A DNA stretch of 20,062 bases, from IMG/VR virus record IMGVR_UViG_2778261543_000001; one strand, given 5' to 3'. Position 1 is the stretch's first letter. Each line of letters starts with the position of its first letter. Shown here piece after piece: positions 4,970-19,882 of the stretch. The notes under the pieces were generated by a model. The model saw only the letters and a program-made list of their open reading frames with translations, made no database searches and was not told where the DNA came from. The translations under genes were made by a program, and so were the position numbers. This stretch comes from a virus. Lineage: Duplodnaviria > Heunggongvirae > Uroviricota > Caudoviricetes.

Positions 4970-5881
4970 ATGGACCAAACCACCGACATTCAGGCTTCTG
5001 AAGAATTAACCATGCCCGGCAATCATGCAGCGGCATCTGCTGATGGCTTAGTTGTCGATAATGCCAACGACAACGCAGGTCAGGAAGAAGGCTTCGAGAT
5101 TGTCCTGAAAGACGATGAGAAACCAAAACAAGACCCGGCAACTAATGCTGAATTTGCCCGTCGCCGCATCGAACGCAAACGCCAGCGTGAGCTTGAGCAG
5201 CAGATGGAAGCGGTTAAGCGTGGAGAGTTGCCGGAGCACCTGCGGGTGAACCCTGAGTTACCAAAACAACCAGACCCTAACGATTATCTTTCCGAAGATG
5301 CACTGGCTAAGTACGACTATGACCAGAGCCGCGCACTGGCTGCCTTCCAGCAGGCAAACAGTGAATGGCAGATCAAGGCTATGGACGCAAGAAGCCAGGC
5401 TGTCGCCGAGCAGGGTCGCAAAACTCAGGAGTTCACCCAGCAATCAGCGCAATACGTCGAGGCAGCCCGTAAGCACTACGACGCAGCGGAAAAGCTCAAT
5501 ATCCCTGACTATCAGGAGAAAGAGGATGCATTCATGCAACTGGTGCCGCCAGCAGTCGGTGCCGACATCATGCGCCTCTTCCCGGAGAAATCCGCTGCTC
5601 TCATGTATCACCTTGGTGCTAATCCTGAGAAGACACGCCAGTTGCTGGCGATGGACGGGCAATCCGCGCTGATTGAACTCACTCGACTGTCAGAACGTTT
5701 AACTCTCAAGCCTCGAGCCAAGCCTGTTTCAGAAGCCCCGTTACCTGATGAACCCATTCAGGGACACGCTGTTGCTGCAAATATCTCTGCGATTGAAAAG
5801 CAGATGGAAGCGGCAGCAAACAAAGGGGATGTAGAGACGTACCGCAAGCTCAAGGCGCAACTGAATAAAGGAATTCGATAA
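4970..5881 (+). CDS. 8: Scaffolding protein, P22 gp8 type (303 aa)
   Basis: 303 aa, the same as P22 gp8; highly charged, helix-prone composition; lies between portal and coat. Its stop overlaps the coat start (TAATG). Confidence 0.85.
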
Positions 5882-7176
5882 TGGCATTAAATGAAGGTCA
5901 ACTGGTCACGTATGCTCTGGATGAAATCATCGAAACCGTCCAGAACCTGACGCCAATGGCGTCCAAAGTGACAAAATACACCCCTCCGGCAGAATCCATG
6001 CAACGTTCAAGCAACACCGTGTGGATGCCTGTTGAGCAGGAAGCGCCAACCCAGACTGGCTGGGATTTAACTGGCAACGCAACCGGGATTCTGGAACTCT
6101 CCGTGAAATGCAACATGGGCGATCCGGATAACGATTTCTTCGAGCTTCGTGCAGATGACCTGCGTGATGAGCGTTCTTACCGTCGCCGCATCCAGGCATC
6201 CGCCAAAAAACTGGCGAATAACATTGAGTCAGCGATTGCCAAACAGGCAACTGAAATGGGCTCGCTTGTTGTTCACGATACCCGAGCAATTGGTCCATCT
6301 ACTGGCCTGTCTGGCTGGGATTTTGTGTCTGATGCAGAGCGCCTGATGTTCTCCCGTGAGCTAAACCGCGATATGGGCATCAGTTACTTCCTGAACCCTG
6401 ACGATTACCGCAAAGCAGGCCGCAACCTGGTAGATGGTGACATCTTCGGGCGCGTTCCTGAAGAAGCGTATCGCAACGGTACTATTCAGCGTCAGATTGC
6501 TGGCTTTGATGAAATTCTTCGCTCACCGAAACTTCCGGCAGTTACCAAGTCAACCGCTACTGGTGTAACTGTTTCTGGTGCGCAGAAGTTTAAGCCGCAG
6601 GCATACACCCTTGATACCGATGGTAACAAAGAGAACGTCGACAACCGTGTTGCAACGGTGACCGTATCCTCCACCACCGGATTTAAGCGCGGCGACAAAA
6701 TCAGCTTCACTGGTGTGAAGTTCCTGTCTCAGATGGCGAAGAATGTGCTGACTGATGACGCGACTTTCTCAATCACCCGTGTGATCGATAGTACTCACAT
6801 CGAAATCACGCCGAAGCCGATTGCGCTGGATGACGCGTCACTGACAAAAGAAGAGAAGGCTTACGCGAATGTAAACACCTCTCTTGCTGATACCACACCG
6901 GTAAACGTTCTGAACGTGGCAACAACCACCGCTAACGTGTTCTGGGCTGATGACTCAATCCGCCTGCTGTCTCAGCCGATCCCGGTAACCCATGAACTGT
7001 TTGCTGGCATGAAAACGTCTTCCTTCAGCATTCCTGGTATTGGTGTTAACGGCATCTTCGCAACGCAGGGTGATATCAACACTCTGTCTGGTAAGTGCCG
7101 TATTGCTGTGTGGTATTCAGCATGTGCTGTACGACCAGAGGCAATTGGTGTTGGTCTGCCTAACCAGACCGCGTGA
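5881..7176 (+). CDS. 5: Major capsid (coat) protein, P22 gp5 family (431 aa), diverged from P22 itself
   Basis: 431 aa against 430 for P22 coat. N-terminus MALNEGQ..., the RADDLRDE motif and the C-terminal [13 protein letters not shown] agree with recalled P22 coat, but many internal substitutions are visible, so this is a different allele from the P22-identical terminase. Confidence 0.9.
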
Positions 7177-7184
7177 TAACCAGA

Positions 7185-7208
7185 GGGAGCTTCGGCTCCC
7201 TTTTCTAT
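7185..7208 (+). terminator. Rho-independent terminator or attenuator downstream of the coat gene
   Basis: GGGAGC-TTCG-GCTCCC hairpin (7185-7200) followed by TTTTCT, 9 nt after the coat stop codon. Confidence 0.6.
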
Positions 7209-7219
7209 TGGAGATACCA

Positions 7220-7825
7220 ATGAGCGTAATGATTTTTCAGGCTGGCGGAGATACCAAAATATGGGGACGCAAGCTGAAAACGAAAACCGTTGATCCTGAT
7301 GATGTAGCTGTGCACTTAGCAAATGGCTGGTATAAGCACCCTGACGATGTTCCTGATGATCCTCTTGTTGGTGATCAAATTGGGAGTGTTGGCGGAGGTG
7401 AAACTTCCCCAGTTGATATGGGCGAAGTGTCCGACGGTTATCACACTTTTAACGAGCTTTACGCTCACCGAGTGCGCCTCTTCTCATCGCTGATGCATGC
7501 TTACGCTGAGCTTTCGTGGTGGTCTCGCAAACACAGTGACGGTGAAGAGTGGGATGGCTGGATCATTGCTGGTATCACCACTCCAGAAGGCGAAATCACT
7601 TATCACCTACCTGTTGAAGAAATCGAGTTCCTTCCTGAAGGTACTGAGCTTGAGTTCGGGAAAGAGTGGGATGGTCATGAAGCAAATGATGTTCTTGGAC
7701 GACTCCTGAGTTTGCGTCCGGCTATTGCAGAGCCAGAGCCAGAGCCAGAGCCAGAAGAAAAACAGCGTAAAAAGCCTAGTCGAAAACCTAAGGCGGCAGC
7801 AGATGAACCTGACAACGAAGGGTGA
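7220..7825 (+). CDS. Acidic hypothetical protein (201 aa) with an (EP)4 repeat and a Lys/Arg-rich tail, inserted between coat and gp4
   Basis: ATG at 7220 with a GGAGA site 5 nt upstream. The ORF track begins this frame at 7040 inside the coat gene, but 7220 is the first start after the coat terminator. Protein is Asp/Glu-rich and ends ...[22 protein letters not shown].... Its 3' end overlaps the gp4 start by 23 nt. P22 has no gene here as far as I recall. Confidence 0.6.
7729..7752. repeat. Perfect tandem hexanucleotide repeat (AGAGCC)x4
   Basis: Read directly at 7729-7752. Encodes EPEPEPEP in the 7220 frame. The WLWLWLWL and GSGSGSGS stretches in antisense and alternate-frame ORFs are artefacts of this repeat. 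Confidence 0.95.
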
Positions 7826-8303
7826 TTTAGTCCTTGCGGCATTACGTAAGCTCGGTGTTGCATCAAATGCCACGTTAACCGATGTCGAACCGCAGTCTAT
7901 GGAAGACGGCGTCAACGACCTCGAAATGATGATGGCTGAATGGCTTGGCGGTGATGTGTCACCTGGTATCAACGTTGGCTACATTTTTGCTGATGCAGAT
8001 GTCGCTCCGGATCCGGGCGATGAGCACGGTTTATCAAATAACGCTATCAATGCCGTCATTTTCAACCTTGCCTGCCGCATTGCTCCAGATTATGCGCTGG
8101 AAGCGTCTGCAAAACTTATAACCACTGCCAGATACGGTAAAGAGCGACTCGTCAAACTGTCTGCAATGGATAGGGCAAAAGCCGCTAAATGTAAGTCCGG
8201 TTATCCAAACCGTATGCCTGTTGGTAGCGGTAACCAGTTGGCGAAGTGGAACGGTTGGAATTACTTCCACCGGAAGGAACCTTGCGATAACGGGAGCGAA
8301 TAA
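7803..8303 (+). CDS. 4: Head-completion / tail-adaptor protein, P22 gp4 type (166 aa)
   Basis: Starting at the ATG at 7803 gives 166 aa, the P22 gp4 length, and the sequence ([27 protein letters not shown]...[14 protein letters not shown]) matches recalled gp4. The ORF-track start at 7725 is an upstream extension running through the repeat. Confidence 0.85.
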
Positions 8304-9722
8304 ATGCCGATTCAGCAACTTCCGCTTATGAAAGGTGTCGGCAAAGACTTTCGAAACGCCGACTATATCGACTATCTGCCAGTGAATATGTTGGCTACAC
8401 CCAAAGAAATCCTTAACAGCAGCGGATATCTTCGCTCATTCCCGGGCATTGCCAAACGTTCCGACGTGAACGGTGTATCGCGCGGCGTCGAGTACAACAT
8501 GGCGCAGAATGCTGTTTATCGCGTGTGTGGCGGCAAGCTCTACAAAGGCGAAAGCGAAGTCGGTGACGTCGCCGGAAGTGGTCGTGTATCAATGGCGCAT
8601 GGTCGGACATCACAGGCAGTAGGCGTTAATGGTCAACTGGTCGAGTATCGCTATGATGGCACGGTTAAAACCGTCTCAAACTGGCCTACAGACAGCGGAT
8701 TCACGCAGTATGAGTTAGGTTCAGTCCGCGACATTACGCGCTTACGTGGGCGTTATGCGTGGTCAAAAGACGGCACTGATTCATGGTTTATCACTGACCT
8801 TGAAGACGAATCGCATCCTGACCGCTACAGCGCACAATATCGTGCTGAGTCTCAGCCTGACGGCATCATCGGCATCGGAACATGGCGAGACTTCATCGTC
8901 TGCTTTGGTTCATCGACGATTGAATATTTCTCCCTGACTGGCGCAACAACTGTTGGTGCTGCTTTGTATGTCGCACAGCCATCACTGATGGTGCAGAAAG
9001 GCATTGCCGGAACTTACTGCAAAACGCCATTCGCTGATTCGTATGCGTTTATCAGCAATCCGGCAACGGGTGCGCCGTCTGTATACATCATCGGATCCGG
9101 TCAGGTGTCACCAATCGCCAGCGCGAGCATTGAGAAAATTCTCCGCTCCTACACTGCTGATGAACTGGCTGATGGTGTGATGGAGTCTCTGCGATTTGAT
9201 GCGCATGAGCTGCTGATTATCCATCTTCCGCGCCATGTTCTGGTGTACGACGCATCTTCAAGCGCCAATGGTCCGCAATGGTGTGTACTGAAAACAGGCC
9301 TGTATGACGATGTGTATCGCGCTATCGACTTCATTTACGAAGGCAATCAGATAACGTGCGGCGATAAGCTGGAATCCGTGACCGGGAAATTGCAATTCGA
9401 TATCAGCAGCCAGTACGACAAGCAACAGGAACATCTGCTGTTTACTCCACTCTTCAAAGCAGATAACGCCAGAGTTTTCGACCTTGAGGTTGAATCGTCA
9501 ACTGGCGTTGCGCAGTACGCTGACCGCCTGTTCCTCTCTGCAACCACTGACGGCATCAATTACGGGCGTGAGCAGATGATTGAGCAGAATGAACCGTTCG
9601 TTTACGACAAACGCGTTTTGTGGAAGAAAGTAGGGCGCATCAGGAAAAACATTGGCTTCAAATTGCGCGTTATCACTAAGTCACCTGTCACTCTGTCTGG
9701 CTGCCAGATAAGGATTGAGTAA
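8304..9722 (+). CDS. 10: Tail hub / head-completion protein, P22 gp10 type (472 aa)
   Basis: 472 aa, the same as P22 gp10; it follows gp4 directly (TAA then ATG) with a GGGAG site. Assigned by size and conserved order. Confidence 0.85.
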
Positions 9723-10570
9723 TGGCTGATTCGAATCTTAATGTGCCGGTAATCATTCAGGCTACACGACTCGACACATCAGTCCTTCCGCGTAATATCT
9801 TCTCGCAGTCGTATCTGCTTTACGTTATCGCACAGGGAACTGATGTTGGTAACGTGGCTAACAAAGCCAACGAGGCCGGACAGGGCGCTTATGATGCACA
9901 GGTCAGGAACGATGAGCAGGATGTGATTCTGGTCGATCACGAAATTCGACTGGCATCGGCTGAAGCGAAGATACAGGACCACGAAACAAGGATCACTAAC
10001 GCAGAAGCGGCGATAGTCGGCCTTGATTCACGATTAACGACAGCAGAAAACGATATTGATTATCTGACTGATGAAGTTATCGCCATTCAAAACACGCTTT
10101 CAGACCATGAAACGCGCATCGATGCTCTGGAGTATGCCACTACTCGCAAGAAGTCAGAGGTTGTTTACTCTGGCGTATCTGTAACCATCCCGACAGCGCC
10201 GACCAACCTTGTTAGCCTGCTGAAAACGCTCACGCCGTCATCTGGCTCGTTGGCACCATTCTTCGACACTGTTAACAACAAGATGGTTGTGTTCAACGAG
10301 AACAAAACCTTGTTCTTCAAGCTGTCGATCGTCGGGACGTGGCCCAGCGGAACCGCCAACAGGTCAATGCAGCTAACCTTTTCCGGCTCTGTTCCTGACA
10401 CGTTGGTCAGCAGTCGTAATGCAGCGACAACAACCGATAACATCCTGTTAGCTACGTTCTTCAGCGTGGATAAAGACGGCTTTCTTGCCACAAATGGCAG
10501 CACGTTAACCATTCAGTCGAATGGTGCGGCGTTTACTGCCACAACCATCAAGATAATCGCGGAGCAGTAA
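9722..10570 (+). CDS. 26: Tail needle (cell-puncturing plug), P22 gp26 family, 282 aa with a C-terminal extension
   Basis: N-terminus [43 protein letters not shown]... matches the recalled gp10-binding N-terminal domain of P22 gp26. The centre carries repeated DHE(I/T)R heptad-type coiled-coil motifs. At 282 aa it is longer than P22's 233 aa, and the extra C-terminal part is Ser/Thr/Asn-rich, as in the knobbed needles of Sf6/HK620-type phages. Confidence 0.9.
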
Positions 10571-17061: not shown

Positions 17062-17086
17062 AAAGCCCCTTACGGGGCTTTTTTAT
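17062..17086. terminator. Terminator hairpin between the convergent tailspike and gtrC-like genes
   Basis: AAAGCCCC-TTAC-GGGGCTTT hairpin (17062-17081) with a T-run to 17086, 5 nt after the tailspike stop and overlapping the stop of the - strand gene. The T-tract follows only on the + strand, so termination of the minus-strand gtr transcript is less certain. Confidence 0.6.
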
Positions 17087-18603
17087 ATGCCTGTTTTTAT
17101 TCTGTGGTTGTAAACCATTATTATCATGCCATTGTAACTTAGAACTTCATCAGGACTGCCAATAGTAGCCTCGACTCCTTTCCTACATAAATCTATGTCT
17201 GCGCACTGATCTCCAGTATTGCCCTTCCTTAAAGCTATGAACTGTCGTTCAGGTTTTGATTCTACAAATTCATTTGTGTGCCAAAACTTCATTGTTTGAA
17301 CGCGGGCATCCTTGAAGTTGATAACCCCTGTTTTTTTATGAAAGTAAACAGGGGTTATATGTATGTCTCCGCCAGACAGCCAATTCACGCCCATAGACAT
17401 CCCCCAAAAACTACCATATCCGTAAGTAAGATCATGATGCTTAAGGAAGTCTATATATGAATTGACAGGGTTATCGTTAAGCTTGTAGCGAATATTCATT
17501 AATGAGTAGCCATAAATGCACGTAGCAAAACTTAACAGCAAAGGAATTACTAATAATATAGCTCGTTTAGAAGATGCTGCTACTGACAATAGCACGATCA
17601 CCATTGGGGCAATATTAAGATAAAATCTTTGATGGGGAGTTTGATCACCTATTATTGAAGATGAGTATATTCCTGCTATAGACATGATTGAAAATATTGC
17701 AATGTAGCGAGCCGCACCGCCTCGCTTTATGCATATGAACACGGCATATAAGCATGTAATAGACCATGTAAAAAATATTGCATACCTGAAATACTCGTTG
17801 CCTATATTCGTTATTGGCAACATCTTGGCTGTGATATCAACAGCAAGCCTGGCATTATCAAGCATAACATCAAAAGGTGCCAAGTGGAAAGAGTGAACAG
17901 GAAGACCTATAATCTTTTGAATTACATTTGAGAAAGCCAATGCAAAAAACACAAAGTATATAATGAAATTTCTTTTTGTGGTTTTCTCAAAAACGATGAT
18001 AGCACACTCAGTAATTATCATTGGTAGGAAAAAAGCCGCCAGAAGCCATGGATCAGACGCGCTCGCTAGCAGCGAAATCAAAGAGCATACAAACGGTATA
18101 AATATGTTTTTGCTTTTTAAGCTTAACACAAACAAAGAAAAAACTACGAACCCATACGCATTAGTAGAGTTATGCGAAAATGGGTGTGAGAAATAACCGT
18201 GTCTGTATAGGTCTGGAGAAACAAATGTTATGCATATTAAAGCAATTAAAGCTAGATAGTTACCTGAACATGACCTAACCATTTCTGTTACGCATGCTGT
18301 GATAACAAAAATAAATATTGCGCTTGATATCACTAATGGCAACAGACCATCATCACCGAGCAGTAAAAACAAAGCAAAGTTTACTGGATAAACTGTAAAA
18401 TACCAGTTATCAAATGTTGGTTGCCATTGAGTAAAAGAACTCCATCCACTGTCCAGGAATGCCCTCCAAACTATTGGGCTATTGGCGGCATCTGCATCCC
18501 CTGACCATAAGTAGCTGTGTCGCGATGTAAGATAAAGAGACACGCAAAAAGATGCGAGATATAAAAAACACCAAAAAGCTCTGCTATCAGATATCCTATT
18601 CAT
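17083..18603 (-). CDS. GtrC-like serotype-specific O-antigen glucosyltransferase (polytopic inner-membrane protein, 506 aa); specificity unknown
   Basis: Third gene of a gtrA-gtrB-gtrX arrangement, with its start overlapping the gtrB stop (ATGA). The protein is very hydrophobic with many predicted membrane spans and a ~130-aa hydrophilic C-terminal domain. AT-rich codon usage. I do not recognise it as a specific named Gtr type. Confidence 0.7.
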
Positions 18604-19523
18604 GATTTACTAACACCCTTTAATATATAACGAGGCCTATTTTTGGACTCAACATATATCCTGCCAATGTACTCACCAAGAACGCCAATGCCAATCAATT
18701 GAACCCCGCCAAGGAACAGAATAGAGACAAGCAGGGATGGATATCCACGCACAGCATTGCCGAAGGCCAGTGTGTCGATAATCATCCAAGCACCGTACAG
18801 AAACGCCACTCCAGCTACGAACAGGCCAATGTAAGTCCACATGCGCAACGGGAAAGTAGAGAAGCTTGTGATCCCCTCAAGTGCCAGGTTCCACAGTTTC
18901 CATCCATTAAATTTAGTACTGCCTGCCACTCGTTCTGCGCGTGCATACTCGACAACATCTGTGCGACCGCCAACCCAACTCAGCACACCTTTCATAAAAA
19001 GGTTGCGCTCTGGCATAAGCTTAATGTTTTCGACAACTTCACGGCTCATTAACCGGAAATCGCCAACGTTTTCTTCTATCTTTGGGTTGCTGATTTTGTT
19101 ATGAAGCTTATAGAACCACTCAGCAGATTTACGTTTTAGTCGGCTGTCAGTTGAGCGATCAGAGCGCTTAGCAAGAACCATATCCGCGCCGGCCTGCCAC
19201 TTCTCAATAAGATGAGGGATGACTTCAATCGGGTCCTGCAGGTCAACGTCAATTGGAATTACAGCCTCTCCGGTTGCATGTTCTAACCCTGCAAACAATG
19301 CTGGTTCTTTACCAAAGTTGCGTGTAAATGACAGTGGAACAACCAGCGGGTCTGAAACAGCCAGAGCATTAATAATTGACTCCGTAGCGTCTTTACTTCC
19401 GTCATTTATGAATACAATTTCCACTTCATATGGCTTCAACTCTTCGAATTCACGTACCGTTTTATAGAAAATTGGTATCGCTTCTTCTTCATTGAGGACA
19501 GGAACAACCAGAGATATCTTCAT
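18600..19523 (-). CDS. gtrB: Bactoprenol glucosyltransferase GtrB (GT2 family, 307 aa)
   Basis: N-terminal GT2 fold signature ([14 protein letters not shown]...INDGSKD...) with a DxD-type motif (PIDVDLQDP) and two C-terminal hydrophobic helices, as in GtrB. Flanked by gtrA and the gtrC-like gene with ATGA overlaps. Confidence 0.9.
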
Positions 19524-19882
19524 TTCGCATTCCTAAAGACAATGAGCTTTGAATAGACGAAACCGCACACCAGGCTGATGGCGGAGAAAGTGATAAGGGT
19601 GACCATTGGAGGAAGTGCACATCTATCAGCAGCCCATCCAATAGTTGCACTCAGTGTTCCCATGAACCCGACATATAACATGTAGCGCATCGTTGTAGTT
19701 GATGCTTTGAATGTGAATTTTGCATTCGCGAAGAAGCTAAAACTCACAGCCACAACAAAACCTGCGAAGTTTGCCAGAGCCTGATTGGTATGCGCGGCAT
19801 AGATACATACACCAAAAACCACCCAGTGTATAAGTGTGTTCAGCACGCCAATCGAGGTGTACTTTGCAAATAGCTTTAACAT
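19520..19882 (-). CDS. gtrA: GtrA, small membrane protein (flippase for undecaprenyl-phosphate glucose), 120 aa
   Basis: 120 aa with four hydrophobic segments, first gene of the operon, typical GtrA size and position. Confidence 0.85.

Follow-up and report, generated by a model that had tools for sequence, protein, structure and literature searches.

In P22 the interval between the coat gene and gene 4 is occupied by orf69 (BK000583, positions 6135–6344), and in phage L by orf186. The orf69 product matches phrog_1175 (E=4.5e-31) and is laid out as an N-terminal domain followed by a basic patch, while orf186 was listed in the phage L genome paper with "detailed function unknown" (PMC8022706). 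Our literature searches on orf69 returned nothing about the P22 gene, and the coat–gp4 slot is not discussed in the epsilon34 genome paper.

The other described systems that bear on the present locus are accessory proteins. Ocr and ArdA are acidic proteins of this kind from phages or plasmids. The sponges Tad2 (PF11195), Sequestin (PF21825) and Acb2/Tad1 are short phage accessory domains that are found fused to one another. The domain now named Sequestin sequesters 3'cADPR, was chosen for testing through its fusion to Tad2 and Acb4, and was reported in 639 of about 25,000 phage genomes (bioRxiv 10.1101/2025.07.12.664507). Acb5 is a short oligomeric phage protein that cleaves cGAMP, has an inter-protomer pocket of Arg, Trp and His, and occurs mostly in Streptomyces and Mycobacterium phages (Tal et al. 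preprint).

The stretch of DNA analyzed here, called the window below, comes from the IMG/VR record IMGVR_UViG_2778261543_000001 (20,062 nt). It represents the late region of an E. coli phage or prophage of the P22-like group (Lederbergvirus), with Pfam matches to scaffold, coat, gp4, gp10, a gp14-like DUF2824 protein and gtrA/gtrB, as well as to a Sf6-type needle knob and a tailspike head-binding domain. The subject of this study is a 201-aa ORF in the slot that has the coat gene as its upstream limit. The features of the slot are collected in Table 1.

Table 1. Features of the coat–gp4 slot and its borders (positions in the window)
Feature	Position	Strand	Basis
Coat protein gene (P22 gp5 family)	5881..7176	+	PF11651 P22_CoatProtein, E=1.2e-165
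Coat terminator-like hairpin, UUCG loop and U-rich tail	7182..7209	+	Folding
Shine-Dalgarno GGAG, 6 nt 5' of ATG	7210..7213	+	Read off the sequence
Allele-specific cassette (N-domain, linker, WDGH)	7215..7727	+	blastn junctions
201-aa ORF, orf69/orf186-family late gene with WDGH domain	7220..7825	+	Pfam, PHROGs, homologues
N-terminal orf69-type domain, residues 1–46	7220..7357	+	phrog_1175, AF2
Poorly conserved, predicted-disordered linker, residues 47–67	7358..7420	+	pLDDT, phage L identity
WDGH domain, residues 68–165	7421..7714	+	PF25311
Hexanucleotide GAGCCA repeat coding (EP)4	7728..7755	+	Tandem Repeats Finder
Basic patch, residues 181–191	7760..7792	+	Comparable patches in orf69 family
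gp4 gene (tail accessory factor / head-tail adaptor)	7803..8303	+	PF11650 P22_Tail-4, E=1.3e-58

The ORF, which runs from an ATG at 7220 to a TGA at 7823–7825, is a real gene because it matches the Pfam WDGH family (PF25311, E=1.4e-39) and, over its whole length, phrog_3769 (E=1.9e-99), and has 1348 homologues in the database; a 100% identical copy is present in the IMG/VR locus L101. An earlier, preliminary description of this DNA had read it as an ORF with its own ribosome-binding site that follows the coat terminator and overlaps gp4, and all of this was confirmed: the GGAG lies between the coat hairpin and the ATG, and the 3' end overlaps the start of gp4 (ATG 7803) by 23 nt. Its place in the late operon likewise stands; the ORF is on the same strand as coat and gp4 and between them. 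The hairpin 3' of the coat stop has the core GGGAGC-UUCG-GCUCCC, followed by UUUUCUAUU, and the segment 7174–7222 folds with an energy of −18.3 kcal/mol (z = −3.2). A simple terminator scan did not flag this hairpin, which was seen by direct folding of the segment; the records of phage L, Sf6 and P22 mark the corresponding element as a terminator or stem-loop. Judging from this anatomy, the ORF would be part of the late-operon transcript, through transcription past the coat hairpin, and would be translated from its own GGAG, with its last codons overlapping the gp4 start. In the minimum-energy fold UAUUGG (7206–7211) also pairs with CCAAUG (7217–7222), which would partly mask the GGAG and the ORF start; this pairing is weak (6 bp).

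Of the residues of the encoded protein 41 are acidic and 20 basic, for a net charge of −21, and its pI is 4.6, so that the strong acidity noticed earlier is genuine and the estimate of a charge near −25 was not borne out. We are confident that it contains a 98-aa WDGH domain set between an N-domain of about 45 residues and an EP linker with a basic tail, four parts in all. The N-domain, for which residues 1–44 match phrog_1175 (E=4.1e-13), comprises a beta-hairpin and a helix and bears a GW..HP motif, and the block-mean pLDDT of the AF2 model is 77–88 across residues 1–40. The pLDDT falls below 50 in the linker that follows (residues 48–64). Genome records treat this ORF unevenly. In RefSeq NZ_CP061185.1 (L091, 20279–20605) only a 108-aa 3' fragment is called, as "hypothetical protein", which leaves the N-domain and half of the WDGH domain unannotated; in other genomes the full ORF is labelled "WDGH domain-containing protein".

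On the strength of its sequence we firmly regard the ORF as equivalent, in an E. coli phage, to phage L orf186, and as the long allelic form of the small late gene between coat and gp4 that is represented in P22 by orf69. Phage L Orf186 lies in the same slot, is preceded by the same terminator and overlaps gene 4 in the same way, combines an N-domain, a WDGH domain and a basic tail, and belongs to phrog_3769 as well. The two proteins are about 61% identical overall, with 75% in the WDGH domain, 50% in the N-domain, 39% in the tail and 11% in the linker (2 of 18 positions, residues 47–64); they differ in that phage L has EPATKE in place of the EP repeat and in that the window copy is more acidic. 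The coat–orf186–gp4 region of phage L is about 65% identical to the window at the nucleotide level. By the NG86 method the WDGH segment has a dN of 0.19 against phage L orf186, and dS was inestimable for both folded segments; for WDGH it was returned as the −1 sentinel, which we read as saturation of the synonymous sites. By tblastn, homologues covering residues 1–165 are present in many P22-like phages of Salmonella, among them phage L (Orf186), ST104, g341c, SE1, ST160 and BTP1.

The short proteins of the P22 orf69/phrog_1175 type share with the ORF the slot, a homologous N-domain, an acidic/Pro linker (often an EP repeat) and the basic patch, but they lack the WDGH domain. APC_JM3.2 and IME10, the E. 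coli phages closest to the window, have in the slot an 88-aa ORF composed of an orf69-type N-domain, (EP)8 and a tail. The APC_JM3.2 ORF is a phrog_1175 member with the layout of P22 orf69, and its C-terminal 21 residues are those of the window protein except for a Gly in place of Ser187. A 77-aa orf69-type gene is found in the slot of a Serratia P22-like prophage, and the position and strand are common to the window ORF, P22, phage L, APC_JM3.2 and this prophage. An orf69-type gene was present in the slot in six of six Salmonella, E. coli and Serratia P22-like phages and prophages examined (the window included) and in 76 of 76 resolvable IMG/VR loci. A profile search with the N-domain returned 427 proteins; among the matches listed, lengths were 44–84 aa and most came from enterobacterial genomes, and the one context examined was again the coat–gp4 slot. 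We are firm in the view that the slot gene is kept by P22-like phages of this head-gene type.

The premise of the preliminary description, that the P22 assembly cassette normally has no gene between coat and gp4 and that the ORF was inserted into an empty slot, is therefore wrong; P22, phage L and the Serratia prophage all carry one. The EPEPEPEP linker and Lys/Arg-rich tail that it reported are present, not as marks of an inserted gene but as features of the orf69 family (see below). The Sf6 slot gene, to which it had looked for a comparison, is gp6; it belongs to PHROG 3251, shows no HMM link, and was rejected as a homologue of orf69, leaving it a positional analogue only. The gene in the window is itself ordinary, recognised and repeatedly annotated, of a known but uncharacterised kind. 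It was rightly singled out as a likely seat of an uncharacterised function; it is the least understood gene of the window, and its function is undescribed in the literature searched.

Long and short alleles were compared in 76 IMG/VR loci that share at least 98% gp4 identity with the window. The long allele is present in 14 of these, and the other 62 carry a short allele of 74–104 aa without the WDGH domain. The flanks of the ORF (7000–7214 and 7728–8399) are 97–98% identical by blastn to the short-allele phages APC_JM3.2 and IME10, whereas the cassette between them has no detectable nucleotide similarity to either phage; the swapped segment must thus extend from the ribosome-binding site up to where the EP repeat begins, and the GAGCCA repeat itself marks the right-hand junction of the exchange. 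Between the two E. coli alleles the N-domains share only 33% identity. A search of 5426 complete E. coli genomes found the long cassette in 43 (about 0.8%), always in the chromosome, and the short cassette in 174. Because most phages that share this head module (the 62 short-allele loci) do without it, the WDGH domain is non-essential for assembly. The two alleles in otherwise near-identical P22-like prophages also provide a ready-made isogenic pair.

The EP repeat and the basic tail are variable within the family. (EP)4 of the window corresponds to residues 171–178 (7730–7753), and Tandem Repeats Finder scores the DNA here as 4.7 perfect copies of a 6-nt unit. The copy number is (EP)1–3 in the 14 long alleles and (EP)1–15 in the short ones, always in frame; the window and locus L101 have (EP)4, and the protein P0001 has (EP)1. 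Because the repeat is hypervariable in frame, it is suggested to be a flexible spacer whose length is uncritical. Basic patches comparable to that of the window were found in P22 orf69, phage L orf186, the APC_JM3.2 ORF and the Serratia and Klebsiella homologues, and since EP-type linkers together with basic patches recur in the Serratia, Klebsiella and Citrobacter versions, both are features of the orf69 family. The patch reads KKPSRKPK in the window and in five other loci (L034, L044, L048, L074 and L083), KKPGRKPK in most copies, and KKPGPKPK in phage L, so the AT-hook-like core is conserved loosely rather than strictly.

In the WDGH domain, residues 68–165 match the Pfam model over its full length (1–97 of 97) with 134.7 bits against a cutoff of 27. 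All the signature motifs are present in the ORF: SDGYHTFxELYxHR (71–84), HxDG (105–108), TYHLP (127–131) and WDGH (150–153). They are near-invariant in 150 WDGH representatives, in which the invariant or near-invariant positions are D72, H75, E79, Y81, H83, R84, W100, H105, D107, Y128, H129, W150, D151, H153, D157 and R161. Five near-invariant His residues together with Asp, Arg and Trp make a pattern typical of a ligand, metal or catalytic pocket. The AF2 model of the domain is a confident alpha/beta structure (block-mean pLDDT 94–97 over residues 81–160) with the order helix, three strands, short helix, helix, and with a disordered linker and tail on either side.

Profile searches with the ORF gave PF25311, phrog_3769 and phrog_1175. 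In Pfam, at E up to 1, the ORF matches WDGH only, with neither a sponge family such as Tad1, Tad2, Acb2, Acb4, Sequestin or Lockin nor an anti-restriction family among the matches, and no match was obtained in NCBIfam, PADLOC or Rfam. A PDB sequence search (E up to 1) and a Foldseek search against the PDB (E up to 0.001) returned no match, and in BFVD the structural matches were WDGH family members and one DUF551 fusion, with nothing else. The family is very large, with 4462 cluster representatives at 50% identity (E up to 0.001), and neither WDGH nor PF25311 is mentioned in the literature searched. Most members are stand-alone proteins of 100–130 aa, as judged from the best 120 matches to Listeria phage A511 gp21, the Firmicutes-type branch, all of which are single-domain proteins of 100–202 aa.

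Two tandem WDGH–WDGH proteins, P0306 and P0338, show complementary decay of the conserved residues (alignment A4). Copy 1 has kept DGYH and H83 and lost H105, D107, H129 and WDGH, and copy 2 has lost Y74, H75 and H83 and kept R84, HxDG, YHLP and WDGH. The simplest reading of this decay is that one site would be formed from two domains, which would place the pocket at a dimer interface.

Fusions provide a further indication of function. Among the 150 representatives the other Pfam domains were Sequestin/PF21825 (7), Lar restriction alleviation (3), Tad2-like (1), the Acb2/Tad1 hairpin (1) and DUF551 (1). One protein, P0102, combines Tad2-like, WDGH and Sequestin (PF21825) domains and is encoded by a late-region gene of a Serratia P22-like prophage, with the lysis genes on one side and the terminase–portal genes on the other. 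The preprint on Sequestin does not mention WDGH, and its tables hold no WDGH motif (bioRxiv 10.1101/2025.07.12.664507).

The neighbourhoods of WDGH genes were sampled as well. In an IMG/VR census 139 of 157 WDGH loci were P22-like prophages. Outside the P22 slot about 27 contexts were sampled (8 places from 6 proteins, 18 loci, of which two pairs share a contig, and 4 places), and in 7 of these a sponge-family gene lies within 5 kb of a stand-alone WDGH gene (L092, L097, L098, L099, L174, L175 and L177). In L092 an Acb2/Tad1-hairpin gene is directly downstream of the WDGH gene and a Tad2–Sequestin fusion is 3 kb upstream. L097 has a Tad2-like gene directly upstream of its WDGH gene, L098 has Acb2-hairpin and Tad2-like genes less than 2.3 kb away, and L099 has an Acb2-hairpin gene at 3.3 kb. 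The neighbours in L174, L175 and L177 were detected with weak home-made HMMs, and three of the seven contigs (L092, L097 and L098) look like related phages. Positions 1031–5846 of L092 hold all three genes in less than 5 kb and are apparently an anti-defence island; L097 and L098 are similar. Elsewhere the WDGH gene keeps different company. SSB, YopX and MazG genes are its neighbours in Gram-positive prophages, an SNF2 helicase gene was seen together with MazG, a dUTPase gene is beside it in Staphylococcus phage phiSP15-1, and DNA methylases, or no recognisable partner, were found as well; in Streptococcus phage IPP39 it stands among head genes and in Klebsiella phage LASTA among early hypothetical genes. 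The association of WDGH with sponges is real but partial. Fusion or adjacency to sponges, the criterion behind the discovery of Sequestin, was found for the WDGH family and not for the copy in the window.

The comparison with sponges and with Acb5 has two sides. WDGH resembles Tad2, Sequestin and Acb2/Tad1 in being fused to them and in sharing islands with them, and its tandem-duplication pattern hints at an inter-subunit site. It differs in that none of them is matched by the ORF sequence, the predicted fold is alpha/beta with a three-stranded sheet, and its many invariant His and Asp residues point to a catalytic or metal-binding role more than to simple sequestration. Like Acb5, which with Acb1 and Apyc1 is among the signal-cleaving phage enzymes, it would be a small phage protein with an interface pocket containing Arg, Trp and His. 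Identity with Acb5 was rejected on the grounds of a different host distribution, a spacing of R10, W38 and H61 that does not fit, and supplementary tables without the WDGH motif. TadIV-1 was rejected as an identity for WDGH as well.

We propose that the ORF product would be a non-structural late accessory protein. Its WDGH domain is probably a dimer, with a pocket made from two groups of invariant residues, Y74, H75 and H83 on one side and R84, H105, D107, H129, W150, D151 and H153 on the other. A small nucleotide-like molecule would be bound or cleaved in such a pocket, most likely with the purpose of blunting host defence signalling that uses such molecules (of Thoeris or CBASS type) or another defence. 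To the reading of the domain as a counter-defence module that binds or cleaves a ligand of this kind at a composite, probably dimeric site we give a little less than an even chance. The wider claim, that WDGH (PF25311) is a new and very widespread counter-defence family of phages with a dimeric His/Asp/Arg/Trp site acting on a nucleotide immune signal, and that it was grafted into orf69, is more tentative, and we think it somewhat more probably wrong than right. Sponges have positively charged pockets and the WDGH domain of the ORF is strongly acidic, which counts against a sponge; the timing of late-operon expression is not obviously ideal for counter-defence, and the conserved N-domain and tail are left unaccounted for. 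Sponge neighbours occur in few contexts, and SSB, YopX, MazG and dUTPase neighbours would fit nucleotide metabolism equally well. WDGH could instead serve as a housekeeping enzyme of nucleotide metabolism, such as a metal-dependent hydrolase of (d)NTPs or modified nucleotides that moves between genomes and has no relation to defence. We regard this as unlikely: the constellation of invariant His and Asp does resemble a metal or catalytic site, and the dUTPase, MazG, SNF2 helicase, SSB and DNA methylase neighbours are in its favour, but no fusion to a recognised metabolic enzyme was found in the 150 representatives or the 120 Firmicutes-type matches, the recognised fusion partners bear anti-defence names (DUF551, a label without function, aside), and there is no fold match to known hydrolases.

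The constant presence of an orf69-type gene in the slot, the translational coupling of the ORF end to gp4 and the WDGH gene among the head genes of IPP39 would all suit a helper in assembly or head completion, or a minor virion component, in which the N-domain and basic tail act at the portal/gp4 step and WDGH is an add-on. Against such a role, WDGH comes and goes among phages with near-identical coat and gp4, and most WDGH genes lie outside structural modules; moreover, orf186 is absent from the 13 of 22 proteins, identified in phage L virions by mass spectrometry, that are named in the main text of the genome paper (PMC8022706). We therefore judge this role improbable, and the earlier suggestion of an accessory virion component is left without support by the near-identical head modules that lack the WDGH domain. 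The preliminary description had cast its anti-defence idea as a DNA mimic, an acidic protein able to block restriction enzymes or other defence proteins that bind DNA; this seems to us very improbable. The net charge and pI of the protein recall Ocr and ArdA, and three representatives carry WDGH fused to a Lar-type restriction-alleviation domain. Acidity is however not conserved in the family: the net charge of the domain has a median of −6 and a range of −14 to 0 in the 150 representatives, and the window copy, at −14, is at the extreme, which argues against DNA mimicry as the mechanism of the family. Conservation falls on His, Asp, Arg and aromatic residues such as Trp instead of on surface carboxylates, and the lack of any Pfam match but WDGH extends to the known anti-restriction families. 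The DNA-mimic idea is thus not supported, while the general anti-defence guess receives indirect support from the domain fusions and gene neighbourhoods.

The lead of worth is then WDGH as a candidate anti-defence family that can be tested. The family is large and lacks a structural relative that has been solved, validated immune-signal sponges are among its fusion partners, it sits in sponge islands, and these fusions and islands are of the same sort as led to Sequestin.

Several minor observations concern the surroundings of the gene. The needle gene (9722–10570) encodes a Sf6-type knob domain (PF16532, E=2.2e-108) beside a P22-type coat, a combination that shows the module to be mosaic. On the minus strand, 17083–19882 is likely an O-antigen glucosylation cassette with a GtrA-like (PF04138) and a GtrB-like (PF00535) protein and a 506-aa ORF that has no Pfam match and is taken, by its position, to be the serotype-specific GtrC-type transferase. 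In the close relatives Louie (PQ850616.1, L002, 583–1110) and Dewey the scaffold and coat genes are separated by an HNH endonuclease gene of the opposite strand, which is not in the window. In the APC_JM3.2 record (MG197996.1, L001, 2166–2666) the gp4 homologue is labelled "recombinase RmuC", which is almost certainly a mis-annotation.
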